This document shows, piece by piece, positions 9,819 through 24,600 of a stretch of DNA of 64,000 bases (positions are counted from its first letter, which is position 1; each line of letters opens with the position of its first letter). Under the pieces are notes generated by a model. It was not told where the DNA came from. It saw only the letters and a program-made list of their open reading frames with translations, and ran no database searches. This DNA comes from an uncultured Methanomicrobiaceae archaeon. GTDB lineage: Archaea > Halobacteriota > Methanomicrobia > Methanomicrobiales > Methanoculleaceae. Made by a program: the position numbers and the translations under genes. The stretch covers positions 1 through 64,000 of the forward strand of contig CAWGXH010000004.1 of assembly GCA_963826525.1 (NCBI GenBank). Reading direction: 5' to 3'.

Positions 9819-11247
9819 CCGTTCACCGGGTGATTGTTCTTATCGCCCCTGCCGATCCCCTTGTAGACGAAGCCTGCGGCGATGAAGGCATCGGGGTCGA
9901 GGACGTTCCTGCCGTCGACGATCACCGGGTGCTCCTGCCCGGTCAGCCTCCGCACGCGGGCAGGATCGAGCCGCCCGTAGAGATCGTGGCCGGCGAAGAT
10001 CGCGATCGCGTCGGCGCCGGCGAGCACCGCGTGAAGATCGGTCTCGATCGGGATGCCGACGTCCTCAAGGGCGTAGGGGTCGTGGACGGCGACCGTCGCT
10101 CCCGCCGCCGTCACGAGATCGTAGAACGGCTCGGCGGGGGTGTTCCGGGCATCCCCGGAGTTCTTGATGAACGCCCAGCCGAGGAGGGCGATCTTTGCGC
10201 CGGCGAGGGGCTTTTCCACCCGCTCGAGCCCCTGGCGGGTCAGCGTCGCCATGTGCCGGGGCATGAAGTCGTTGATCGCCCGGGCGACGCCGAAGATCGA
10301 CTCCTGCCCGTGGGGATAGTCGAGGTCGCCGCCGAGCATCTGCGCCCCGCGTTCGAGGTGCCAGGTATCCTTCGTCAGGCAGTGGCCGCCGACCCCGGCG
10401 CCCGGCCAGAGGATCGCCCGGGTGATCCCCTCGCCCTTCAGGGAGTCGACCCCGGCGCGGACGTCGTAGACGTTGACGCCCATCGCCTCGCAGTGCAGGG
10501 CGAGCTGGTTCGCAGCGGCGATCTGCAGGTCGCGGAACGCGTTCTCGGCGGTCTTCGTCACCTCGGCGGCGGTCGCGGTCATCGGGATGATTTTTCCAAC
10601 AGTCAGCACCGGTGCGTAGAGCTCGATCGCCCGTCTCGTCGAGACCTCGTCGATCCCGCCGACGATCCGGTCGTGCTCCCGGATGTTCCGGAGCAGCCGG
10701 CCGACCATCACCCGCTCGGGGGCGTGGGCGAGGGCGAAGTCGACGCCGGCGACGAGCCCGGACTCCTCCTCGAGGATCTCCTTCGCCATGCCGGTCGTCG
10801 TGCCGGGGGTGATCGTCGACTCGAGGACGACGAGCGTGCCCGGCGTCAGGTAGCGGCCCGTCTGGCGGAGCCCCTCGACGAGCGGCCGGAAGTCCGGGAT
10901 CAGGTCTTTCGGGTCGGCAAACGGCGTCTGGATCGCGAGGGTGACGGCGTCGCACTCGGCGATCTTCGCAAAGTCCGCGGTGCACCGAAATTTTCCGGCG
11001 CCCACGGTCTTCTTGATCAGGTCTTCGAGCCCCGGCTCCTCGCCCTTCAGGGGAGCTCGCCCCGGTTGAGCATGGCGATCTTATAGCCGGAGGAGGGGGA
11101 GTCGCGCTGGAAGCCGTAGACCTGTTCGATAGAGAGGACGTCGGCGAAGAGGGCCGCCGCCGGAATCCCGACGTAGCCCATGCCGATGACGCCGACCCGG
11201 CGGATCGGCCCTCGTGCGTCGATGTGTGACTGTAATGGAGATGTCAT
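9815..11247 (-). CDS. Nucleotide-sugar (UDP-GlcNAc/ManNAc) 6-dehydrogenase family; one frameshift near 11050
   Basis: GMGYVG Rossmann motif, LESTITPGTT, HAPER, KTAEN, GAGVGGHCLTKD and DGRN. Confidence 0.9.
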
Positions 11248-11259
11248 GGTGGTACCTGC

Positions 11260-12165
11260 TCACGATGCCCGGCCGATCTCCTCGCAGATCGCGAGGTTCG
11301 CCGCCGCCTGATCGGGGGTGATGGGGAATGATTTGCCCTGCTTCGCACAGTCGAGGAAGGTCGCCAGCTCGACCTTCAGCGGTTCGACCTTGTTGACGAG
11401 CACCTTCTCGATGATATTCTCCTGGACGTAACGCTCGTTCTCGGAGGAGTAGCGTTCGGGCTTCCGGTAGACGTAGACCTCCTGGGTCATGAAGTCGCCC
11501 TCGATCGTCATATCCTCCTGCTCGATGTAGACCGACCGGATCTTCTTCGACGACTTCCGGCTCGCCGAGAGGTAGACCGGCGTCGTCCCGAAGGTGAAGA
11601 GGGCGCTGCAGACGTCCGCGGTGCCGCCGGTGGTGAGGGAGTATGCCCCATCGAAGAGGACGTTCCGCATGATGTCGATGTCGTGGATCATCAAATCCTC
11701 GACGACCGAGGCGTCCGTGATCCGCCCGGAGGCAGGGTTGTGCCGCTTGAACTCGACGTAGAGGGGGGTATCCATGATCTTCCGGATCTCCTCGACGATC
11801 GGATTGAACCGCTCGATATGCCCGACCCCGACCGTGAGATCGTCCGGGATCTTCGCGAGCAGGCCCCGGCTCTGCTCCGCCGTCGAACAGATCGGCTTTT
11901 CAAGCAGCATCGCCACGCCACCGTCGAGCACCTCCGACGCGACCGGAAAGTGAAACCGTGTGGGGACACAGACGCTCACCGCATCCACCCGCTTCAGCAT
12001 CTCGGCGAGACTATGAGAGACCACGGCATCGTGTCTCCGTGCAAGGTCTTCCGCAGCCTTCTGGTTGAGGTCATACACATACAGTGAATCGACACGTTTT
12101 AACTCAGAATAGATGCGGACGTGGTTTCTTCCCATGACGCCGACACCAATAACACCTACATCCAA
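11260..12165 (-). CDS. Gfo/Idh/MocA oxidoreductase (WbpB/WlbA-like sugar 3-dehydrogenase)
   Basis: GVGVMGRNH, LEKPI, VGHIERFNP and DLMIHDID. Confidence 0.88.
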   Translation of the reverse strand: MDVGVIGVGVMGRNHVRIYSELKRVDSLYVYDLNQKAAEDLARRHDAVVSHSLAEMLKRVDAVSVCVPTRFHFPVASEVLDGGVAMLLEKPICSTAEQSRGLLAKIPDDLTVGVGHIERFNPIVEEIRKIMDTPLYVEFKRHNPASGRITDASVVEDLMIHDIDIMRNVLFDGAYSLTTGGTADVCSALFTFGTTPVYLSASRKSSKKIRSVYIEQEDMTIEGDFMTQEVYVYRKPERYSSENERYVQENIIEKVLVNKVEPLKVELATFLDCAKQGKSFPITPDQAAANLAICEEIGRAS

Positions 12166-12727
12166 TCAAATTCCCCCCGGTTCATCAATCGAGCTCCGGT
12201 TGTGTCAGATGAGGTCTGCATAGCATAAAATAATTGTTCTGATTGGCCGTTACGGACCGAAAATCGAGAGAACCGTGGGGGCGTGCGCTCCCCGTTCCGG
12301 AGTAGGCAGGCCTTGTTCCCGGTGCTCGGAGCGGCGGCGCTTCGGCGGGACGGTGACCCACCTGATCGTAGAGACGCTGCCGTCCGCAGAGCTGACAGAT
12401 CGGCCAGATACATATCCACCTCACCGGCACCCCCGGGCAGTGAAGAGCCCCATCAGAGAATTACGCCATTTTCATAGGCGGTTACCGGAGAGCAGGGCAG
12501 CCCGTTCCCCCCCGGAGTGCGGAGAAGACGCCTCCGGCACTCAAGCCCGCTAAACCTCTTTGAAAGACCCTTTTGCGCCCGGAGCATCCCCGGCCAATCC
12601 GCTCGAAAATTCGGGCGAAATCCTGGATTGCCGGTTATCCTGCTGGCTCTCCGGTTCAGGGAATAGTAAGGAACCAGGGAAAGTAATATAAAGGTGCCAG
12701 ACAATCCTGACGCCGAGGAGCGTCCCT

Positions 12728-13378
12728 GTGGATCTTGACTTGCACATTCACTCAAAGTACTCCTACGACTCTTTTGCAAGTCTTCATAGCATACTGAAAA
12801 CAGCACACAAGCGAGGGATTGAGGTCGTTTCGATCACCGACCATAACACGATGGCGGCATATGCACGCTCCGAGCTGAAGAAAGAGGCACGGCGCTACGG
12901 CATCACCGTTATTCCGGGGATGGAGATCCACACCGATCGCGGCGATCTCATCGGACTGTTCCTGGAGGAGGAGATTGCATCGCGGTCATTTCAGGAGGCC
13001 GCCCGGGAGATCCGGTTCCAGAACGGCATCCTCCTCCTCCCCCACCCCTACCGGAGACGCGGCGACCCCGCAGCGCTCGTGGCTGATGTCGACCTCGTCG
13101 AAGTGATCAACGGACGGTCGAGGATGGAAGGGAACAGCAGAGCGGAGGCACTCTGTGCCGCCGCAGGGAAGCAGCCGGTAACCGGCAGCGACGCCCATGC
13201 ATGCTTTGAGATCGGCAGGGTGGTAACCCGGATCGACGCGGACGGCAGCGATCCCGAAGACATCCGGAGGGCGCTCCTCTCTTCTCGGAGGAGATGCATC
13301 GGCAGTCCGCGGCAGTACTATCTCTCCCACGGCATGAGCCGCTGCATTGCGAGGGTAAAGCAACTGGTGAACGTATGA
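12728..13378 (+). CDS. PHP-domain phosphoesterase
   Basis: DLHIHSKYS, ITDHN, PGMEI, LPHPY and GSDAH. Confidence 0.88.
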   Translation: MDLDLHIHSKYSYDSFASLHSILKTAHKRGIEVVSITDHNTMAAYARSELKKEARRYGITVIPGMEIHTDRGDLIGLFLEEEIASRSFQEAAREIRFQNGILLLPHPYRRRGDPAALVADVDLVEVINGRSRMEGNSRAEALCAAAGKQPVTGSDAHACFEIGRVVTRIDADGSDPEDIRRALLSSRRRCIGSPRQYYLSHGMSRCIARVKQLVNV

Positions 13379-14607
13379 AGGTGTTTGTCACTGACGGAGG
13401 GGAACGGGCGAGTCTTGCAGTCGTGCGGTCGCTCGGTAGGAGAGGCGTCGAGGTTCACGCCGGGGAGCACTACCGGTTATCTGCCTCGTCGCTCTCAAAG
13501 TACGTGACAAAGAGCGTTGTTCATCCGAGTCCGCAGGAGGACTGCCACGCATACATCGACTGGATGGAAGACTTCCTTGCCCGGGAAAACTACGACGTAC
13601 TCTACGCAACACGGGAGATAAGCACCCTGCCGATCTCGTACTACAAAAAGCGGCTCGAGCAGTACACCCGGGTGCCGTTCCCGGACTATGATCGGATGAT
13701 ACTGACCCAGGATAAGGCAAAGACGTTCAGGCACGCGATAGAGGCGGGAGTTCCCATCCCGAAGACCTACTTTGTGGAGAGCATGGACGAACTCGAGGCT
13801 ATCGCGGAGGAGATCGAGTACCCCGTCGTCGTGAAGTCGCGCTCGAAGACGATGTGGAACGGCGGCAGGCCGTTCACCCTCAAAGTGCAGGCTGATAACT
13901 ATGTGAAAGATAGGAGCGGCCTCGCCGGGATCTCGGCGAAGATCCTCGAGAAGAGCGGAAAGATGCCGTTGATACAGGAGTATATTCCCGGCGAGGCCTA
14001 CGGCGTCGAGATGCTCCTGCACCACGGCGAACCGCGGGCGCTCTTCATGCACAAACGGCTCCGGGAGTACCCGATAACCGGCGGCGTCAGCACGATGCGG
14101 GAGAGCATCTACGACGAGAGGTTGAAAGAGCCTGCCGCCAGGCTGATGAAGCACCTGCGGTGGCACGGGGTGGCCATGGTGGAGTTCAAGGTGGATTCAC
14201 GCGACGGCATACCGAAGCTTATCGAGGTGAACGGCCGCTTCTGGGGTTCGCTCGCGCTCCCGGTCGCCGCAAAGGTCGACTTTCCCTACTACCTCCACCG
14301 GATGATCCTCGACGGCGACGTGCCCGCGAAGATCGACTACCCCACCGGCGTGCGATGCCGGTGGCTGATCTCCGGGGACCTGTTGTGGCTCACCTCCTCG
14401 CTGAAGACCGCACGGAGCAAGACGGCGGTGCTGCGCGAGTTCCTCCGATACCCCGATGCGTACGACGATATCCTCTCGCTCGACGACCCGCTCCCGATCC
14501 TCGGCGCGATGAACGGCAGTCTCCGTGGGCTCCAGTATACGGTACGGCGGATGATGGAGCGGAGCCGGACCGGAGCGATGGATACCCGGTGTGCGAAAGA
14601 TATCTGA
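13375..14607 (+). CDS. ATP-grasp carboxylate-amine ligase family protein
   Basis: DKAKT..A...GVPIPKT, YPVVVK, LIQEYIPG, MVEFK and LIEVNGRFWGS. Confidence 0.85.
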   Translation: MKVFVTDGGERASLAVVRSLGRRGVEVHAGEHYRLSASSLSKYVTKSVVHPSPQEDCHAYIDWMEDFLARENYDVLYATREISTLPISYYKKRLEQYTRVPFPDYDRMILTQDKAKTFRHAIEAGVPIPKTYFVESMDELEAIAEEIEYPVVVKSRSKTMWNGGRPFTLKVQADNYVKDRSGLAGISAKILEKSGKMPLIQEYIPGEAYGVEMLLHHGEPRALFMHKRLREYPITGGVSTMRESIYDERLKEPAARLMKHLRWHGVAMVEFKVDSRDGIPKLIEVNGRFWGSLALPVAAKVDFPYYLHRMILDGDVPAKIDYPTGVRCRWLISGDLLWLTSSLKTARSKTAVLREFLRYPDAYDDILSLDDPLPILGAMNGSLRGLQYTVRRMMERSRTGAMDTRCAKDI

Positions 14608-14677
14608 GAGCAGCACAGGCAGCAGAAAATAGGAGCGGGATCGGTCGTTCGATCCCGTCAGGGGGAGAGGCGGTTAT

Positions 14678-15604
14678 TTACTGCTTCCGGAACCAGGCCG
14701 CCGTCTCGGCGAGCCCTTCTTCGACTGTATACTGCGGGTCGTAGCCGAAGGCTTCACGGGCACGCGAGATATCGGCGAGCGAGTCCCTGATGTCGCCTGC
14801 CCGTAGCGGCTCGTAGACCGGCGTGACCCGGACACCGATGATCTCCATCAGGATGGCGGCGAGCTCGTTCAAACTGATCCTTCTGCCGCAGGCGATGTTG
14901 AAAACACCCTGCGCATCGCTCTCCATCGCTTTCATGTTCGCCTGCACGACGTCCCTGACGAACGTGAAGTCGCGGGTCTGCCCTCCGTCGCCGTAGATGG
15001 TCGGCGCCTCGCCCCGCTGCAGTTTCGTGATGAACTTCGGGATGACGGCGGCGTACTCGGACATGGGGTCCTGCCGGGGGCCAAAGACGTTGAAGTAACG
15101 CAGGAAGGCCGTCTGGATCCCGTAGAGCCCCGAGAAGACCTTGCCGTAGTACTCGTCCGTGAGCTTCGAGACCGCGTAGGGGGAGAGGGGGTTTGGCGGC
15201 ATGCCCTCGTGCTTCGGGAGAACGGGGGTGTCGCCGTAGACCGAGGACGACGATGCGGCGACGACTTTCCGGACGCCACAGTCCTTCGCCGCGACGAGGA
15301 CGTTGAGCGTCCCGGTCACGTTCGCCTCGTTCGAGGTTATGGGATCGTTCACCGACCGCGGGACGGAGGGGATCGCCGCCTGGTGGAAGATCCCGTCGGC
15401 ACCCGGGAAGAGGTCCATCAGGAGGGGCAGATCGGTGATGCTCCCCTCGACGAAGGTCACCCGCTCGTTGCCGGCGAAGTGCTCGGCGTTCTCGCGCCTT
15501 CCGGTGGATAGATTATCGATGATGACGACGTCGTGCTTCTCCGCAAGTGCATCCGCAAGATTCGACCCGATAAACCCTGAGCCGCCCGTAACGATGTATC
15601 GCAT
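14678..15604 (-). CDS. NAD-dependent sugar epimerase/dehydratase (WbpP/GalE-like SDR)
   Basis: TGGSGFIGS, SSSSVYG, YAVSK, RYFNVFGPRQ and GDGGQTRDF. Confidence 0.93.
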   Translation of the reverse strand: MRYIVTGGSGFIGSNLADALAEKHDVVIIDNLSTGRRENAEHFAGNERVTFVEGSITDLPLLMDLFPGADGIFHQAAIPSVPRSVNDPITSNEANVTGTLNVLVAAKDCGVRKVVAASSSSVYGDTPVLPKHEGMPPNPLSPYAVSKLTDEYYGKVFSGLYGIQTAFLRYFNVFGPRQDPMSEYAAVIPKFITKLQRGEAPTIYGDGGQTRDFTFVRDVVQANMKAMESDAQGVFNIACGRRISLNELAAILMEIIGVRVTPVYEPLRAGDIRDSLADISRAREAFGYDPQYTVEEGLAETAAWFRKQ

Positions 15605-15656
15605 ATCACACAGAATGGTCGTCCTTCCATTTCATTCTTACTCCCCGGAGGGGGGC

Positions 15657-15783
15657 GATAAACCGGATACTGCACTATGGGATCTCGCGCCCGTGCGGAG
15701 ATCGGCATCTCACCGGAGCCGCCGGGCACCCGGCGAGGGATCCGCCCGACGACCCCGATCGATATAGCAGCATCCGGTTTATC
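15657..15783. repeat. 127-bp cassette bounded by 17-bp inverted repeats
   Basis: GATAAACCGGATACTGC (15657-15673) and GCAGCATCCGGTTTATC (15767-15783) are 16/17 complementary; internal hairpins GATCTC/GAGATC and GCCGG/CCGGC. Confidence 0.75.
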
Positions 15784-15795
15784 CATCACGATCGA

Positions 15796-16717
15796 TCACT
15801 CGTCACGCTTCGTATCCGAGAGCGGGAAGAACTCCTGATAGACCCTTCTGCGCTCGTCGATATCCGTATGCAGGTAGATTTCGGTCGTTTTGATCGAGGT
15901 GTGCCCGAGGTTCTCCTGCACGACCCGGAGGTTCTTCGAGCGGCGGTAGAGCTCGCTCGCGTAGGAGTGCCGGAGTTTATGCGGCGTGATGCCGTCGGGA
16001 GCGTACTTCTTGAATATCCGCTGCACGGTGCGGGGCGAGAGGTGCTTTCCCTGCTGGCCGATGAAGAGCGGGCCGACGATCCGGTTGCCGATATACCGCT
16101 CGACCTCGGCGAGCGTCTCCTCGTCGATGAAGACGACCCGGATCTTATCGCCCTTCCCTTTGACGCGGATGGTGCGCTCATCGAAGTCGATATCCTCGAC
16201 GTTGATGGTGCAGAGCTCGGAGACACGGACGCCGGTGGCGTAGATGAGCCGCACGATGAGACGATCTTCGTCGTCCTCGATCGTCCGCATGAGGCGGATC
16301 ACCTGGCTGTGCTTTAAGTATTTGAGTTCCTGATTCTTGATGCGGGGTCGGTCGATGCCGAGCAGAGGGTTCGTCGTAACGGCGCCCTGCGCGTAGAGAT
16401 AGGAGTAAAACGACGAGAGCGTCGAGATCACCCGGTGCAGCGTCCGGGGCTGATACTCCTGCCGCTCGACGAGGTACGAGAGGAAGTCCGTGACCAGCGC
16501 CGGTGAGACCTCGACAGGCGCATCGAGCCGGGCGAGGGCAAAGTCCGCCTCGGAGAACGAGACGGCATCCCCGCCGGAGGAGCCCCGGAGCCAGACGTAC
16601 CTGCCGAACTGCCGGACGGTCTGGTCGTAGCTCATCGACCGTTTTCGGCGAGTAATTCCGCATCCGGAGGTAGTATGCGAAGCGATTGAGCCATTCCGAG
16701 AAAATACCGCAATCCAT
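15796..16717 (-). CDS. xerA: XerA-type tyrosine recombinase; one frameshift near 16630
   Basis: N-terminal YLRMRNYSPKT domain; catalytic R (TGVRVSEL), K (KGKGDK), HKLRH, LGH and TEIY; no flanking mobile-element genes. Confidence 0.85.
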
Positions 16718-16741
16718 CGTTTATTTAGTCTAATCTCTACG

Positions 16742-16750
16742 TAAATAAAT
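16742..16750 (-). promoter_or_regulatory. TATA box of xerA
   Basis: Minus-strand ATTTATTTA about 25 nt upstream of the ATG at 16717. Confidence 0.6.
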
Positions 16751-16778
16751 TTGTCGCAGAATATCTGTTCTGCGACAC
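16751..16778. other. Candidate dif-like Xer recombination/binding site (11-6-11)
   Basis: TTGTCGCAGAA-TATCTG-TTCTGCGACAC with 10/11 inverted arms; the inner arm CGCAGAA resembles the E. coli dif XerC arm CGCATAA. Confidence 0.65.
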
Positions 16779-18588
16779 TCGGTAACAGGACTCACCTGGC
16801 CAAGACCGAGAGAGGGCATCGAGTATCCGCGAGAGTGCGAGGATGCACGAGGAGGGCACGGAAAACCGATTATTTCCGGATTTGGAGGAGGAGAGAGCAG
16901 CAAATAAGAGAGCCCGGATCAGAAAAAGTATTGGATGGCCGTAACGGAGTTGATCGTGGTTCCGTTCATTGTTTAGGAGGTAACGGGGACGATGCCCCAC
17001 GGGATCCCGGGGATGGACCCCGAATAGAAGAAGGACGCTCCATATTAAAATCCCCCGCCGTGCAGGGCGAAACTGAACGGGCCGGCGAAACGTCATCCCG
17101 TCCGATGCGAGGCCCCCGTACCGCCCACATATAAATGACCCGTACAGATGCGTTTTGAGCGAGGACCGGGCGCATGCCCACATGATAACACCAGAAGACA
17201 GGAGATCTCCCGCCAGGAGCAGAATACGAGGGTGGCCTCAAAGGAGGGAGACGAGGGTGCCGGCACCCGCCTGCGACGGAAATGCACAGAGCGGCCGTCC
17301 CGGGGATCGACGAGGGATCCCGAGACCATGCGTCCGGATGCACTACCAGGGGAGCAGTAGGCCGGAGGAACTCTTGCAGTTCGCATGCGGAGAGAGGGCG
17401 GCCCGAAGGGTTTCACCGCCGAGGAGGGGCCCCGAGAAGCATCCCGTACACCGTGCCGCAGAAGATCTTCACCCATCGCCCTACCGGAAAACAGCAGATC
17501 TCCGAAGAGGAGAGCGTATGCATTCGCCATACAGGCACCGCGTTCTGTTGCACATAACGCACGAAAACGTAGCAAGCACCCGCACTCATTCCGGACGGCG
17601 GCAAAAGATCACCCTACCCACTCACCAAGGAGCCGCAAACCGCACCTACGAGCAATACACGATACCATTTTCGCCCACAATGCACCCTGGGGAAATAGTG
17701 CAGCTCCGAGGCCTGGCGCGACCGCATCCCTACCCGGCGAACCATCCCCGCACGGACCCGACGTAACCCGCAATCAGGCGGTAAACGCAAGAGAGTTCGA
17801 GTCCGGAGAGAGATTGCCATGCGGAACGGAGAATGACCCGGGAGAACTTTCATCGAGGGCACCTCAACCGATCATGAAAACATACAGTTGCAGACTCACC
17901 CGATGGAGATCGGATTCAACCCCTTCCACGATACCCGGCACCCCGGAGGCACCCCGGGCGGCGGATAAGCGCCGATCTTCCACATCCTCCGTCCACAAAA
18001 CGCATGCAGCCACCCGGGAGAGCCGGAGCGGGCAATCGCCATATGAGAGGAGAAGTCCCCCGTTCACCCCTTCGGAGATGCCGCAGTGAACCCGGAAACG
18101 AGAACGGAAAGTTCCGGGAAATGATCACACCGAGTTACGTATCTGCACGAGGGAGTCCACAATGACCGTGCCCGCCACAGGATTTCGTGCGGGGCCGCGC
18201 CCCCACACGTTGCAGATGAGGCCATGCTATCTTGCAGAATTATACCGGCGTGAGATCCCAGAAGTAGTGGCCTCCCGATGGGCGATGAACTCGAGAGAAC
18301 CGATCTTCTCTGCCCCTACTGGACGGAGCGGAGTTTTCCTGCAGCAAATCGGCCACCCCACCGCATTCAGGGCGGGCCGACCTGACGAATCCACCTATTT
18401 TCGCGTATCACAATCCGGCTGATAAGCCAGATCCCATACACAGACAGGCAGCCCGAAGTTTCCGAAAAGCCCCCGAAAACACCTGCTCGGCGGATCAGGG
18501 ACGGAGTTCGGAGCCCGAAAAACAGAATGCATAAACCATATACCGCTATATGTTGTACAGGGTTGAGGAGGCTCATGGTCGACCCATC

Positions 18589-18689
18589 GTGCAGGGGCTC
18601 CCGGCAGTCGAGAGCCGCACCTGTGCCCGCTCGTTCGGTCCCGCAGATCCGGATACACCGGAGAGTGCTCTACCAGGAGAGCGATGCGG
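18589..18689 (+). ncRNA. Putative structured 5' leader of the DUF5806-like gene
   Basis: Long hairpin GTGCAGG-GGCTC..GAGCC-CCTGTGC followed by a three-way junction CCGCA[TCCGG/CCGGA][GCTCT/AGAGC]TGCGG. Confidence 0.45.
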
Positions 18690-18749
18690 CGTAAAAGGGC
18701 AGAAAACCAGCAAGATTGAATACCATAACGTACCAAGAGGGTAAGCAAA

Positions 18750-19313
18750 ATGGAAGAACCTGCAGACCAGAAAGACCCGAAGAAGTATCAGAAATTCAAG
18801 AAAGTGGACGGTGCCACCTACCAGCGGGTAAACCAGTTCCTGCGAAAACACACCTATATCACTGCCCGGGAATGGGCGATCGCCCGGCTATGTGCGGATT
18901 TCAAATCGACGAGCGGATCGGAGATGACCTTCATCGGCGAGCACCTGCCGGAACTCTGCCCGTTCATGGTCGAGACCTACTCGCCGCAGGCGGTAAACCA
19001 GGCCAGAAGCGCATTCAAAAAGAAGGTTAAGAAGGCCGGTGCAACATTCTTCTACGGGGCGATGTGCGGATTCTTCACGGCCGACGAACTCGACGAGATC
19101 CTCTTTGAGGCAAGCGAAGTCGCACGGTTCCTCCTTGAGGTCGAAGGAACGTCGCTTGATATCGACGACGAGATCGATGTCGAGGATCGGATCACCGACG
19201 TGATGCGAGGCGTGGCCGAGGCCGCATCGGTCATCTTAAAGACCCGGAAGCAGCCCGGGGACTCGGACGAAGAGACCACAATCTCCGAACGTGACGAAGA
19301 GGATACTGTATGA
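18750..19313 (+). CDS. Conserved euryarchaeal protein (DUF5806-like)
   Basis: TYITAREWAIARLCADF, LPELCPFM..YSPQAVNQAR and GATFFYGAM, recognised from haloarchaeal/methanogen homologues. Confidence 0.8.
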   Translation: MEEPADQKDPKKYQKFKKVDGATYQRVNQFLRKHTYITAREWAIARLCADFKSTSGSEMTFIGEHLPELCPFMVETYSPQAVNQARSAFKKKVKKAGATFFYGAMCGFFTADELDEILFEASEVARFLLEVEGTSLDIDDEIDVEDRITDVMRGVAEAASVILKTRKQPGDSDEETTISERDEEDTV

Positions 19314-20078
19314 AGATCATCCATATTGTCGGCCTGTCGAATACCGGCAAGACCACCTTTGCCCGCGAGCTGATCGGCAGACTGAAAGAGCAGGGCAGCG
19401 TCGGTGCGGTCAAACACCTCGGCCACCACCCGTATGCCCTCGAGGAAGGAAAGGACACGACGGGATTCTATGAATCGGGGGCTGCTATATCCTGCGGCGT
19501 CGACGAAGAGAAGGCGGTCTCCGTAACCCGCGAGGCGGATCTCGAGCAGGTGCTCCGAACCTTCTGCGACGGCGGCAGTCGAGTACGCCATCGTCGAGGG
19601 ATTCAAAACGCGGCAGTTCCCGAAGATCGTCATGGGCGATCTCGCCGCCGAGAACGTCATCCTGCGAAACCCCGCCGTCGACGAGGTCATCTCGTCCCTC
19701 GACCGGTTCGAGGATTACTTCACGATCGAAGGACTCGTCCGGGAGCTCAGGCGGGAGTGCGACACCTCCCGTGCCGGCGCCATTCTCACCTTCAACGGCC
19801 TCGTCCGGGAGTGGACGGACGGTGAGAGAACCGAGTATATGGACTTCGACGACGAGATCGACGAAAAAATCAAGAGTATCAAAGCGGAGATGGAAGCTAT
19901 CGACGGTATCATCGGCGTCCGTTTCCACCACCGGAAGGGGAGACTGTATGCCGGAGAAGATATAACGTATCTTGCTATACTGACGGAGCGCCGGCAGGAA
20001 GCCTTCACCGCCGCGATCGCGGCGATCGACCGGCTGAAGCGCGAAGTTCACAATCCCGGGGAGATGAAAACAGCATGA
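19310..20078 (+). CDS. MobB-MoaE fusion (molybdopterin synthase catalytic subunit with N-terminal MobB P-loop domain); frameshift near 19575
   Basis: GLSNTGKTT and AVKH, then GAILTFNGLVRE, HHRKGRL and IDRLK. Confidence 0.85.
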
Positions 20079-21427
20079 GCAACCAGAAGCAACTATTCGG
20101 AACAAACGGCGTGCGAGGCGTGATCGGGGAGACGATGACCCCGGAGCTCGTCCTCAAGATCGGTGCAGCGCTCGGAACACTGCGGAAGGGACGGATCGCC
20201 GTCGGAAGAGATACGAGAACATCCGGTGAGGCACTCGTCCACGCCGTGAAGGCAGGGCTGCTGATGGTCGGGTGCGATGTGGTGGACCTCGGGGTGCTCC
20301 CGACCCCGGCACTGCAGTATATCGTCAGGCGGCACTTCGACGGCGGCGCCGTGATCACCGCCTCGCACAACCCGCCCGAGTACAACGGGGTGAAGATCAT
20401 CGATGCCGACGGCACCGAGATGAGCGATGAAGATACCATCGCGATCGAGAACCTGTACTTCGCAGGCTCGGCCGCTGCCTCGTCATGGGACCGGGTGGGA
20501 AGCGAGGTCGTAGCGCACCATATGGTCGAGGAGTATATACAGGGCATCGTCGATCACTTCCCGCCCGGAATCGGAGCCGGGATGACCGTGGTCGTCGACC
20601 CGGGGTCAGGCCCGGCCGCACTGACCACCCCGCTCATCCTCTCGCGGATGGGCTGCAGGGTGCATACTATTAATGCACAGATGGACGGCACCTTCCCGGG
20701 AAGGCTGCCGGAGCCGACCCCCGAAGGGCTGCAGGGTCTCTCGGAGATGGTGAAAAGCCTCGGTGCGGACTATGGGGTGGCGCACGACGGCGATGCCGAC
20801 CGGGCGGTCTTCGTCGACGATAACGGGCACTATGTCGAGGAGAACCACGAGTTTGCCCTGATCACAGACCATGTCTGCAAGCAGAGGAAGGGCGTCGTGG
20901 TCACCCCGGTCAGCACCTCCCGGATCATCGAGGACGTTGCCGGAGCGAACGGATGCAGTATCGAGTATACCCCCGTGGGGAGTATCTACGTCGCCCGGCG
21001 GATGCTCGGACTGATCGAGGACGGCGTGAGCGTCGCCTTCGGTGGCGAGGGGAACGGGGGATTGATCTACCCGGGCCACCAGTTCTGCCGCGACGGCGGG
21101 ATGACCGCTGCCATGATGGTGGCGGTACTGGCCTCCCGCCCGGGCGAGAAGCTCTCTACTGTGCTCGCCGGGCTTCCGGCATACCACTTCATCAAAGACA
21201 AACAGATGACGCCGGAGCCTGCGGCGATCGTCCGGGCGATCGATGCGGCTTTCGCTGACGATGTAAAGGATCGGACCGACGGCATCAAGATCATCAGGGA
21301 CGATGCCTGGGCACTCGTGCGGGCATCGGGCACCGAACCGATGGTCAGGATTATGGTCGAATCCCAGGACAAAGCAGTCGCAGAAACCTTATATCGCACT
21401 ATCCGACAGGTCCTCGGCACCGGGTGA
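20075..21427 (+). CDS. glmM: Phosphoglucosamine mutase / phosphohexomutase
   Basis: LFGTNGVRG, ITASHNPPEYNG, DGDADR, GGEGNGG and RASGTEP. Confidence 0.92.
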   Translation: MSNQKQLFGTNGVRGVIGETMTPELVLKIGAALGTLRKGRIAVGRDTRTSGEALVHAVKAGLLMVGCDVVDLGVLPTPALQYIVRRHFDGGAVITASHNPPEYNGVKIIDADGTEMSDEDTIAIENLYFAGSAAASSWDRVGSEVVAHHMVEEYIQGIVDHFPPGIGAGMTVVVDPGSGPAALTTPLILSRMGCRVHTINAQMDGTFPGRLPEPTPEGLQGLSEMVKSLGADYGVAHDGDADRAVFVDDNGHYVEENHEFALITDHVCKQRKGVVVTPVSTSRIIEDVAGANGCSIEYTPVGSIYVARRMLGLIEDGVSVAFGGEGNGGLIYPGHQFCRDGGMTAAMMVAVLASRPGEKLSTVLAGLPAYHFIKDKQMTPEPAAIVRAIDAAFADDVKDRTDGIKIIRDDAWALVRASGTEPMVRIMVESQDKAVAETLYRTIRQVLGTG

Positions 21428-21633
21428 CATGACCCTCTCCCTGGAAAGTTCACCCCATATTTAACCCTTGGATCGAGGAGAGTACCCACCCAGGCAACAA
21501 AACCCGTAATGGGAGCGATTCAACGAGATTTGTTCGTTTTCAATCAGAGAGCTTTATTGTGGTATGAGGATAACATTTTTATCAGATAGCGGACATCCAT
21601 GATACAGAACCTGGCGGGAGAGCGCTGATCAGA

Positions 21634-24600
21634 ATGAACGGAGAACTGCAGATGAAACAGAAGATAAGCTCCGCAATCTCGAATGGGGATGTGCGTGAGA
21701 TTGAGCAGATCGTCAAAGACATCTCTGAGACCCAGACGCGGAAAGAAAAGAGGACACTCTACGAAGAGATGAATGCCACGCTCGTGGAGACGGCATTCGA
21801 TAAGAACCACCCCGATCTTCTGGGTCAACTGATAGAACCCGATAAGGAAGAGGTATATGGCCTTATCCGCCGGGTTGCCGGCATCTATATCGAAACCAGA
21901 GATGACGGGTGGTTCTCCGCGATCTTTACTCTCGCCGATAAACTCGATCGAAAGAGCCATCAATCGGAGATCCTTGCCGAAACGGCACGGGATATGATCC
22001 AGGCAGGCGTCGACTCCCGGGACTTTCACTATATAGAGAAGGGCGGTGAAGTCTTCAACCAGATCAGCATCCGCAAATACCGCTCCGCCATTCTGATCGA
22101 TATCGTCCCGCTTCTCATCGAGTTCGCAGTCCGTTCCCAGAGCATTCCCATCATGAACAGCGCTCTATCCATGCTCTCGGAGATAGGAGATATCTCAAAA
22201 CAGTCACGCCTCCATGCCGATGTCGCACGGGCAATAGCAGCAATCGGCATCGAGCAGGGAGACCTCGACACCGTTATCCTCGGCCTTCGAAGCGCCACCG
22301 AGATCAACCAGAAGATCCGCCGCACACACTGTATTGCAGATATCGTGGATGCTGCATGGAAATCATCCTTAAAGAAGGAGATCACCGACATCGAGCATGT
22401 ACTCGATGCGGTCTCGGATATCCCCGAAGAGAGGCTTGTGGAAGTACTCGCCATCCTGACGGAGCAGACTCCTCGACCGGCAGCGCGACAAGAAGCAGGT
22501 CTACGCAAAATTGCTCAAGATCGACGCCGAGAAACCGTACGGGGGCCAGACGATCGTCCTCGAGCTCTTAAAGAAGGCGGAGCGGAGTGGAGATCGCTGG
22601 TACCTTGAACGTGCTTTTGAGTTCAATACCAGAGCCGGCGCAGCAGGCCAACTCCCTATCGAGGAGATTGTCCTCTCGGGGATAGCGGTCGTGGAGAAGA
22701 GCGGCAACCCGACAATACTGCTCGATATCACACCGCTCATCGAGTCGTCCTGCGACGCCCCGAAAGCGACCCAGCTCTACCGGCAGATCACCGATGCGCT
22801 CTCACGGATGGGCGACTTTTATCATGCCATCGAGGTGATGAAGAAGGCGAGCAGCCGTGTCCAGAGGATCAACGCCCAGTTCTACGACACCGGCGTCCGC
22901 CTGATCAAGGAGGGAATCAACCGCGACGAGATCGACCTCGTCAAGGAGAACATCCTCGGCGCACTCGATATCGATATCGCCGACTCGCTGATCCACCAGG
23001 CGGTCACGGACTTCTGCAAGGAGTATTCGTTCGAGGATATTATCAGGCATATCCCCTCGATCAAGGAGCTCGTCCGGTCGCACCACGCTCAGGATCACCT
23101 CCTCATGGAGAGCAATAAGATCCTGATCGAACGTGGTTTCATCCGCCAGATGGACCCGTCGTCGCTCGTCAACCTCGCCGCACAGATCAACCAGCAGAGC
23201 CTGCGCGAACAGGCGATATCCACGATCGTCATCGAGATGGCAAGGATCGGCGTAACCCAGAAGAACCGCGATCTGCTCCGCCGTGCGACCGGCCTCACCT
23301 GCGAGATCCAGAACCAGCAGGCACGGGCGGAGGCGATGGGAGGAATCGTCGACCATGCAGCGGTGCTCGCGGTGGAGGACGGCGACCTCGATCTGCTGCA
23401 CGGGATGCGGGTGCTCTCAAGCTCACTCCTCGAGAAGGACTACTGCCTCTTTGCGATGGGCAAGGTCATTCACGGCCTTATCATGTACGGCATCGAGCAG
23501 CTCTCGCTCCAGGCACTGGACGAGGCAACCCAGATTCTCAGCCAGATCACGGACCCGTCCCTGCAGCGGCAACTGATCGACCCGCTCATCGAAGGATACA
23601 TCCGGGTCGGCAGCCTCCGGATGGCAGAAGAGGTCGGGCAGGGGAAAGCACGGATCTTCGAGCACATGATGGAACCGTTCGATCTCGCTCTTCATCTGCT
23701 GAAGACCAATACGCCTCGCGACGAGATCTCCATCAAGATCGCAAGTTACGTCGATATCATGCTCGAGTACACGCAGGTCTACGAAGATCCGATGTTTGTG
23801 ATCCCGATGTCGTACTTCACTCTTGAGATCGAGGGAGAGTATGAGCGTAACGCGATGCTCCAGCGGATTCTGACGTATTTCGGCGCATTTACACGGGATT
23901 TTGACTCTGCCGACCCCTACGAGGTCGTGGCGTACCTGCTCGAGAGTGTCGACGGGGCGATCTCGTCGCCTCCGGTCCTGGAACTGATGTATCGCCTCTT
24001 CGATCAGACCGGGAATATCTACGCCCAGTATTCCGGGATGTACCGGATCGTCAGTGCGTATACGACGCTCGGCAACCAGGTAAGGAGCGAGGAGATCATC
24101 GAGAAACTTCACGGCGCCATCGCGACAATCCCGGAAGCCGCTATCCGTGCGGTCATGCTTGCCGATCTTGCCGGCCTGATGGCGGGCACGAACGAGGCCA
24201 GGGCACGGGCATACCTCGATGAAGCGCAGGAGAACCTCGACCATATCGAGCCTGAACGTGAGGCGTTCGTTCGAAAGAACCTGATCTACGCACTGAAGAA
24301 CATCCACGGCGTCAACCGGCAGGAGGGGGACGTCGATCGGGCGGTCGAGCAGGTCGGAAAGATAGGCGATCCCGTCGAGTACGTCGACGCCCTTGCCGCC
24401 GTCTTCGAGATGGTCACCGAACCGGCCCAGCGTAAGGAGATCCTCTCGGCAATGTGCCATACGGTGGTCAGTATTCCGATGCCGCACGTCCGCCTCTCGA
24501 TGCTCTTTGATATCACCCGGTTCGCCGAAACATACGGGGATGAAGAGGACATCACCGATCTCTTAAACGGTATCGACGAGACCGCAGGGCATATCCAGAT

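Follow-up and report, generated by a model that had tools for sequence, protein, structure and literature searches.

The 28-bp palindrome beside xerA in the window, that is, the whole stretch of 64,000 nucleotides analysed here, is very probably the XerA recombination site (dif) of this Methanoculleus-like methanogen and, in diverged form, that of the Methanomicrobiales, as comparison of the sequences suggests. The type of xerA/dif system is already known, and what is new is its definition for the order Methanomicrobiales. Passages of two papers describe the archaeal system as a single XerA together with a single-copy, 28-bp site in which a 6-bp spacer separates imperfect inverted repeats of 11 bp each (PMC2958812; PMC8371274), sections of PMC8371274 and PMC3646895 treat the mechanism of XerA, and part of PMC5357621 reports a xerA/dif module in some archaea. 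An earlier note on this DNA had proposed such a module, and its proposal is supported by conservation across the order, a spacer of fixed length and variable sequence, co-varying arms, single copy number, the displaced sites of one family (f6), inserts at the site in relatives, and host-type sites on viral contigs. The note's remark that it knew of no defined dif site for Methanomicrobiales agrees with our literature search, in which no publication was found to name XerA together with Methanomicrobiales, the work returned on dif sites, xerA and methanogens not being on this order.

The site and the xerA promoter

The features at the 5' end of xerA are as follows.

16751..16778, unstranded: dif-type site of 28 bp with 11-6-11 geometry, linked to xerA in 39/41 relatives
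16751..16761: gene-proximal arm, reading TTGTCGCAGAA (plus strand) or TTCTGCGACAA (minus strand), the better conserved of the two and next to the TATA-like box
16762..16767: 6-bp spacer, TATCTG on the plus strand, the presumed strand-exchange region, of invariant length
16768..16778: distal arm, reading TTCTGCGACAC (plus strand), which varies more than the proximal arm across the site family
16742..16749, minus strand: TATA-like box TTTATTTA in the xerA promoter, separated by 1 nt from the site, with an AT-rich box there in relatives
15796..16717, minus strand: xerA, split by a 1-base insertion near 16636

Read on the minus strand toward xerA, the site is GTGTCGCAGAA-CAGATA-TTCTGCGACAA, followed after 1 nt by TTTATTTA and then by the xerA ATG at 16717. 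Re-reading of the letters confirmed the 11-6-11 palindrome with 10/11 arms that had been claimed at 16751-16778, as 10/11 positions of TTGTCGCAGAA and TTCTGCGACAC are complementary, and the inner 10 bp form a perfect inverted repeat. It had also been claimed that the palindrome abuts the xerA TATA box, which holds with the box 1 nt away, and that 34 nt separate it from the start codon, where our count from the edge of the site to the ATG gave 33 nt. The centre of the TATA-like box lies ~28 nt 5' of the ATG, so that the xerA mRNA is probably leaderless. A second AT-rich inverted repeat, which the note had placed between the site and the gene, is indeed present as TTTATTTA (16720-16727) and TAAATAAA (16742-16749), but its repeat character is lost in two genomes of the same genus; it is the TATA-like box plus the AT-rich start region and nothing more. 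A 151-nt contig (X4) built from sequencing runs spans 16688-16838 and differs from the assembly at 2 positions, both outside the site. Four DNA runs contain small shares of this DNA, and none of the short contigs built from them reaches the extra base in xerA; no RNA run was listed.

The xerA gene in the assembly begins at 16717 with an N-terminal piece of 27 aa (MDCGIFSEWLNRFAYYLRMRNYSPKTV) and continues in another frame as a 279-aa ORF (16635..15796), while both parts are joined in a single frame of ~305 aa in the orthologues. Relative to two genomes of the same genus, there is one extra base near 16636 (16630-16640), which creates the ATG of the 279-aa ORF. Other genes of the assembly, including several cdc6 paralogues, are likewise split between frames, so the frameshift in xerA may be an assembly error. 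The 279-aa ORF scores 274 bits against the NCBIfam XerA equivalog NF040815 (cut-off 220), matching from profile position 19, and contains the catalytic motifs ATGVR, GKGDK, HKLRH, LGH and EIY; leaving the frameshift in the assembly aside, the xerA product carries the R-K-HxxR-H-Y set that marks a recombinase. Only two PF00589 matches were found in the genome of the window. The other tyrosine recombinase lies at C9:339-836, on a contig of 23.7 kb with a GC content of 0.56 that also carries a cdc6 paralogue (C9:22822-23676) and looks like a plasmid or provirus.

Anatomy and copy number of the site family

The consensus of the site family is TTTGCGCAGAA-TrkkTA-TTCTGCGCAAA, or TTTGCGCAGAA-N6-TTCTGCGCAAA together with lineage variants. 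Among 22 distinct sites, positions 5, 10-11 (AA), 17-19 (A, TT), 24 and 27 are invariant, and the gene-proximal arm is more conserved than the distal one. The spacer measures 6 bp in 39/39 sites and occurs in 14 distinct versions among the 22 distinct sites, being variable at its centre and constant at the base that adjoins the proximal arm. The arms change together, for example as GTCGC...GCGAC, TGCGC...GCGCA, or TTGCGG...CCGCAA in Methanoculleus. Mirrored arm positions are complementary in 80.6% of cells, a figure inflated by kinship among the sites, compared with 73.9 +/- 1.7% after shuffling, and 0 of 2000 shuffles reached 80.6%. A site of dyad symmetry whose spacer is fixed at 6 bp but free in sequence, with invariant bases at its borders, has the look of a tyrosine recombinase core site, according to a section of PMC8371274 and established knowledge.

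The genome of the window contains one exact copy of the site. A check for a single copy had been suggested in the earlier note, and in the genus of the Methanoculleus-type site (g6) one site per genome was detected in 18/18 genomes with at most one mismatch allowed, always beside xerA. Elsewhere among the genera, no site but the xerA-linked one was matched on both strands; the remaining hits there are on one strand with one mismatch, several of them inside conserved coding sequence. A supposed second site 25 kb from xerA in genome G036 was dismissed as a chance match, as it lies within a 1134-aa ORF among housekeeping genes.

Two further palindromes outside the window deserve mention. One of a second type, TGTCGCACAA-AAGTTT-TTGTGCGACA, is situated at C3:426580 (C3:426526-426606), just 3' of a Fic-domain gene and with two further direct half-sites beside it, and its right half plus flank is directly repeated (40 bp) 4 kb away at C3:430613-430651. 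The motif family is thus not strictly single-copy in the genome of the window. This second-type module also occurs in G004, where the homologous stretch next to it again includes the Fic gene. G026 has the repeats of the module, and G001, G002 and G036 gave no match to it. The module may represent either a Xer-type site borne by an element or an array of operators. The other is an inverted repeat, TTTGCGACAC-C-GTGTCGCAAA, at C4:1857384-1857404, 22 nt from the end of a 1.86-Mb contig, which has the same GCGACA core in the opposite arrangement.

Conservation across Methanomicrobiales

The xerA gene was matched in 40/41 related genomes and the 11-6-11 site was linked to it in 39/41, the two exceptions being G037, where the contig begins 55 nt before the match, and G040, which gave no xerA match. 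In 30/30 fetched loci the site occupies positions -61 to -34 of the start, and of the 35 genomes measured, 32 have 33 nt between the site and the ATG. A scan of named genomes returned 80 loci, all of them from Methanomicrobiales (Methanoculleus, Methanoregula, Methanolinea, Methanofollis and other MAGs). The full site stands at the promoter in 78 of these records, 75 of them in register, two displaced by one base and one with a single inner change; the remaining two retain the proximal half alone at the promoter and have a full site 150-220 bp upstream, and all 80 records contain a full site within 220 bp of the promoter position. Alignment of the regions upstream of xerA, another check proposed in the note, thereby brought out conserved arms around a 6-bp spacer of variable sequence, both in the relatives (39/41) and in the named records (78/80). 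The strict pattern AGAA-N6-TTCTGCGMMA was present in 189 of 401 sampled genomes of the order; Methanoculleus and other lineages whose arms have diverged are among the genomes without it.

The palindrome by itself is not significant, since 86 inverted repeats of 11-6-11 geometry with at most one arm mismatch are spread across the 3.06-Mb genome; the weight is carried by conservation, position and copy number. These 86 repeats of equal quality are what could be said for a chance match in an AT-rich promoter. The conservation data refute that reading, as the same architecture recurs at the same place in the six families and 44 genera of the sample while controls with the reversed pattern stay near zero, and its probability is next to nil.

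We also considered that the palindrome could be only an operator of xerA, bound by XerA or by another dimeric regulator, with the real dif elsewhere. The constant spacing of 33 nt in most of the genomes and the proximal arm next to the TATA-like box speak in its favour. In family f6, however, three genomes have the site 639, 1011 and 1144 bp 5' of xerA, in ORF-poor DNA, where it is still kept, which argues that it is more than a promoter element. A regulon operator would be expected to recur in further promoters or to have a regulator gene next to it; the site is single-copy, and the neighbouring 2 kb are ORF-poor and contain no regulator gene. We regard the operator-only reading as very improbable. 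A regulatory role in addition to recombination is another matter: in five of the six families the gene-proximal arm lies, with the fixed 33-nt spacing, at the position expected for the BRE of the xerA promoter, and judging by this position XerA may repress its own gene.

Inserts at the site and sites on viral contigs

A dif site at xerA is interrupted in some relatives. The clearest case is a genome of the Methanoregulaceae (G041).

G041:C8:143133-149218: insert of 6.1 kb (L188), GC-rich, between the halves of dif

The order at this locus is a full site, TTTGTCGCAGAA-TAGGTA-TTCTGCGCATT, then 6.1 kb of DNA, a hybrid site, TAACCTGAGAA-TAGGTA-TTCTGCGCAAA, and xerA. The full and hybrid sites are in direct orientation and have the identical spacer TAGGTA, with one arm different in each, while the uninterrupted site of related records is TTGTCGCAGAA-TAGGTA-TTCTGCGCAAA. 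This is the pattern that would be expected if a circle carrying TAACCTGAGAA-TAGGTA-TTCTGCGCATT had recombined with dif inside the common spacer. The GC content of the insert is 0.55-0.62 against 0.40-0.48 in the flanks. No PF00589 match was found in the insert, and the sole match on that contig is xerA; seven further matches are present elsewhere in the genome, so that another integrase acting in trans may have moved the insert. None of the 15 chosen ORFs of the insert (the locus has 68 ORFs of at least 50 aa) matched Pfam or PHROGs, a search of 401 genomes of the order for one of its proteins gave a single genome, and no relative of its 176-aa protein was found among the viral contigs. The insert may be an archaeal IMEX or a small provirus.

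Similar patterns were seen in three other records. In G042 the ends are as in G041, with the contig breaking inside the element. In two Methanoregula-type loci (L147 and L159), the promoter retains only ...ATA-TTCTGCGCAAA; unrelated DNA separates it from the full site TTGTCGCAGAA-TAGGTA-TTCTGCGAAGT, 150-220 bp further upstream. The proximal arm is thus retained even where an insertion has replaced the other half. IMEX are foreign elements that lack a tyrosine recombinase and lie between a full and a hybrid Xer site. G041 presents this combination, its hybrid site having one degenerate arm and the spacer of the full site. IMEX such as CTXphi, TLCphi and the gonococcal island have been described for bacteria, whereas the present cases are archaeal. 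Our literature search found nothing on archaeal elements that use XerA, and the topics of IMEX and of dif and proviruses yielded bacterial work and general reviews.

Host-type dif sites were furthermore found on five IMG/VR viral contigs (L191 and L193-L196) of 9-69 kb, three of which have terminal repeats. A 41.5-kb contig with terminal repeats carries AATGTCGCAGAA-TAGGTA-TTCTGCGCAAT, and the other four have Methanoculleus-type arms with other spacers; one of these four, of 69 kb with terminal repeats, is rated 100% complete, and another, of 62 kb, is rated 90% complete. No xerA was found within 2-3 kb of the viral sites and no PF00589 match in the five records, so the search among viruses that the note had suggested returned five integrase-less viral contigs with host-type sites. 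The site is near a head-morphogenesis gene at one locus and near an HNH endonuclease at another. In L194-L196, short direct repeats (CGTGATAGAT) flank the viral site. A sixth contig, L192, was not counted, since the pattern that picked it out has just 18 fixed bases and the hit falls on the first part of an ORF; the consensus pattern TGCGCAGAA-N6-TTCTGCGCA was found on 0 viral contigs.

Viral sites without xerA nearby, and inserts bounded by full and hybrid sites with a common spacer, are further points against a palindrome that serves as an operator and nothing else. The idea of the earlier note that mobile elements hijack Xer at this site is supported in relatives by the inserts and the viral sites; at the site of the window itself no mobile element was detected.

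The ORF-poor gap beside the site

The distal side of the site faces a long gap.

16779..18749, unstranded: ORF-poor gap of 1,971 bp, with an A over T skew of 0.28, a GC content of 0.59 and no Rfam match
18750..19313, plus strand: conserved neighbour gene of 187 aa, which bounds the gap in 8/13 regions compared

In relatives the gap measures 1.1-2.3 kb and has a similar skew in six of the seven measured, while its sequence is unalignable even between genomes of the same genus with 93-98% identity in the flanking genes. No Rfam family was matched in 10000-24000 at the gathering threshold, nor in 16600-18900 at E up to 1; the only tRNA of the window is at 1005-1081. The gap contains no further full copies of the site and no convincing ORFs, it has no other copy in the genome, and a repeat search within it returned short two-copy families only. 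A lone half-site, GTGCCGCAGAA, is located at 17452-17462, 674 bp into the gap, with a 10/11 match to an arm. Comparable half-sites are absent from the regions of 10 of 12 relatives, while G002 and G014 have a single half-site apiece.

Such a neighbourhood raises the question of whether the site is mainly an attI- or attB-like capture site of a XerA-like integrase, the 2-kb region being a graveyard of captured DNA and dimer resolution a secondary function. The NCBIfam label of the NF040815 family, 'site-specific tyrosine recombinase/integron integrase', would suit this reading, as would a gap that cannot be aligned between close relatives and the insertions at the site elsewhere in the order. 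Against it, xerA belongs to the core genes, present once and in conserved synteny in 40/41 genomes, most genomes have exactly one site, and the gap has one 10/11 half-site as its sole trace of the motif; repeated attC-like sites between cassettes, as in an integron, were not found in 16779-18749. On balance we consider a capture site of this kind unlikely.

Taking the palindrome as the dif site of XerA, we find it quite possible, if tentative, that the xerA-dif of Methanomicrobiales is also a docking site for integrase-less mobile DNA, an archaeal counterpart of bacterial IMEX, with the viral contigs coming from viruses of Methanoculleus- and Methanoregula-like hosts. The site of the window would then be the entry point, and the fast-evolving, strand-skewed gap of 1-2 kb would be the product of this traffic or else a chromosome-organising spacer like the boundary in T. 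kodakarensis. By analogy, the gap recalls the large intergenic region around the dif of that species.

Position on the chromosome

The note had proposed placing the site relative to oriC and the skew switch. In 10/10 complete genomes it lies 92-170 degrees from the main (best) orc1/cdc6 gene, but no skew switch coincides with it, as neither GC nor AT skew changes sign within +/-200 kb of the site in the two genomes inspected (G013 and G038). In the genome of the window, GC and AT skew both change sign at the main orc1/cdc6 gene at C4:749,294, which likely marks the replication origin, 733 kb from the site; contig C3 of this genome shows no clear skew switch. The site is not at the compositional terminus. 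Sulfolobus dif lies outside fork-fusion zones. A position off the terminus is not decisive in archaea; the dif of Thermococcales is at 120-142 degrees and not 180 degrees from oriC, as given in part of PMC2958812. A second cdc6 paralogue (~260 bits) was observed 44-107 kb from xerA-dif in 6/10 complete genomes (G013, G026, G031, G033, G036 and G038).

Comparison with known systems

The systems of Thermococcales and Thermoplasma (P. abyssi, T. kodakarensis and T. acidophilum) have the same geometry, a single recombinase and a single-copy site. A section of PMC2958812 places dif apart from xerA in Thermococcales and near xerA in Sulfolobales, whereas the site of the window is fused to the xerA promoter. 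In T. kodakarensis, dif is the XerA ChIP peak, and the intergenic region around it, AT-rich and 1.9 kb long, acts as an SMC boundary (PMC11840125, in part), while the site of the window borders a 2-kb gap that is strand-skewed and has a GC content of 0.59. A putative dif upstream of the xerA operon is reported for Haloferax volcanii and Halobacterium salinarum in a portion of PMC11840125. The linked modules of Sulfolobales, Haloferax and Halobacterium, compared here by their description, likewise have the site near or upstream of the recombinase gene, and the fixed 33-nt promoter overlap with conservation across the order is shown here for Methanomicrobiales only.

The most conserved feature of archaeal dif is stated, in a passage of PMC11840125, to be a TAA-N(6-8)-TTA core. 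All 22 distinct sites have RAA-N6-TTY instead, and the site of the window has GAA-N6-TTC. The missing TAA/TTA core, together with a location away from the skew switch, could be counted in favour of an operator with the real dif elsewhere. A search for a canonical TAA-N6-TTA dif, however, gave C3:570144 as best candidate, between two divergent promoters, and this was rejected: in the 41 relatives it produced control-level matches except for one hit with 1 mismatch, so the sole canonical candidate is not conserved beyond control level. The TAA/TTA core is a sequence habit of the known examples and not a mechanistic requirement.

The XerS/difSL system of streptococci and lactococci is likewise one of a single recombinase whose gene adjoins its site, as parts of PMC2958812 and PMC5357621 describe. 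It differs in being bacterial, in its atypical 31-bp site, in its location at the terminus and in its dependence on FtsK, none of which applies here. E. coli dif, for which the K-12 sequence was taken from NC_000913.3, shares the 11-6-11 geometry and the inner CGCA.AA / TT.TG, and four relatives share its spacer TGTATA; it differs in its two recombinases (XerC/XerD), FtsK control and terminus location. The statement in the note that the inner CGCAnAA is common to the window's site and the E. coli XerC arm is correct against this reference. Identity to E. coli dif is 13-20/28 across the sites and 16/28 for the site of the window, a value of at least 16/28 being reached by 600 other 28-mers of this genome, so that the likeness is not distinctive here.

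Proposed mechanism and meaning

On the model of P. abyssi and T. acidophilum XerA, one XerA monomer would occupy each 11-bp arm, two occupied sites would synapse, and strands would be cut and swapped where the arms meet the 6-bp spacer, by which a chromosome dimer would be converted into two monomers. From the sequence features described above we infer that XerA binds and cleaves the site; its role in the resolution of chromosome dimers is suggested by homology. Integrase-less viruses and small elements would use the same site, and at least one of them would have inserted between the halves of a chromosomal site.

A concrete dif consensus for the whole order provides an annotation landmark and a substrate for XerA biochemistry, and the site may find use in methanogen genetics for marker recycling or integration. 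As the site is fused with the promoter, autoregulation of an archaeal Xer recombinase can be put to a direct test. The newest part of the finding is the apparent use of the site by integrase-less mobile DNA: the inserts and the viral sites suggest that XerA serves viruses and small elements of archaea in the way that XerCD serves bacterial IMEX, which, if true, would explain how integrase-less proviruses enter methanogen genomes.
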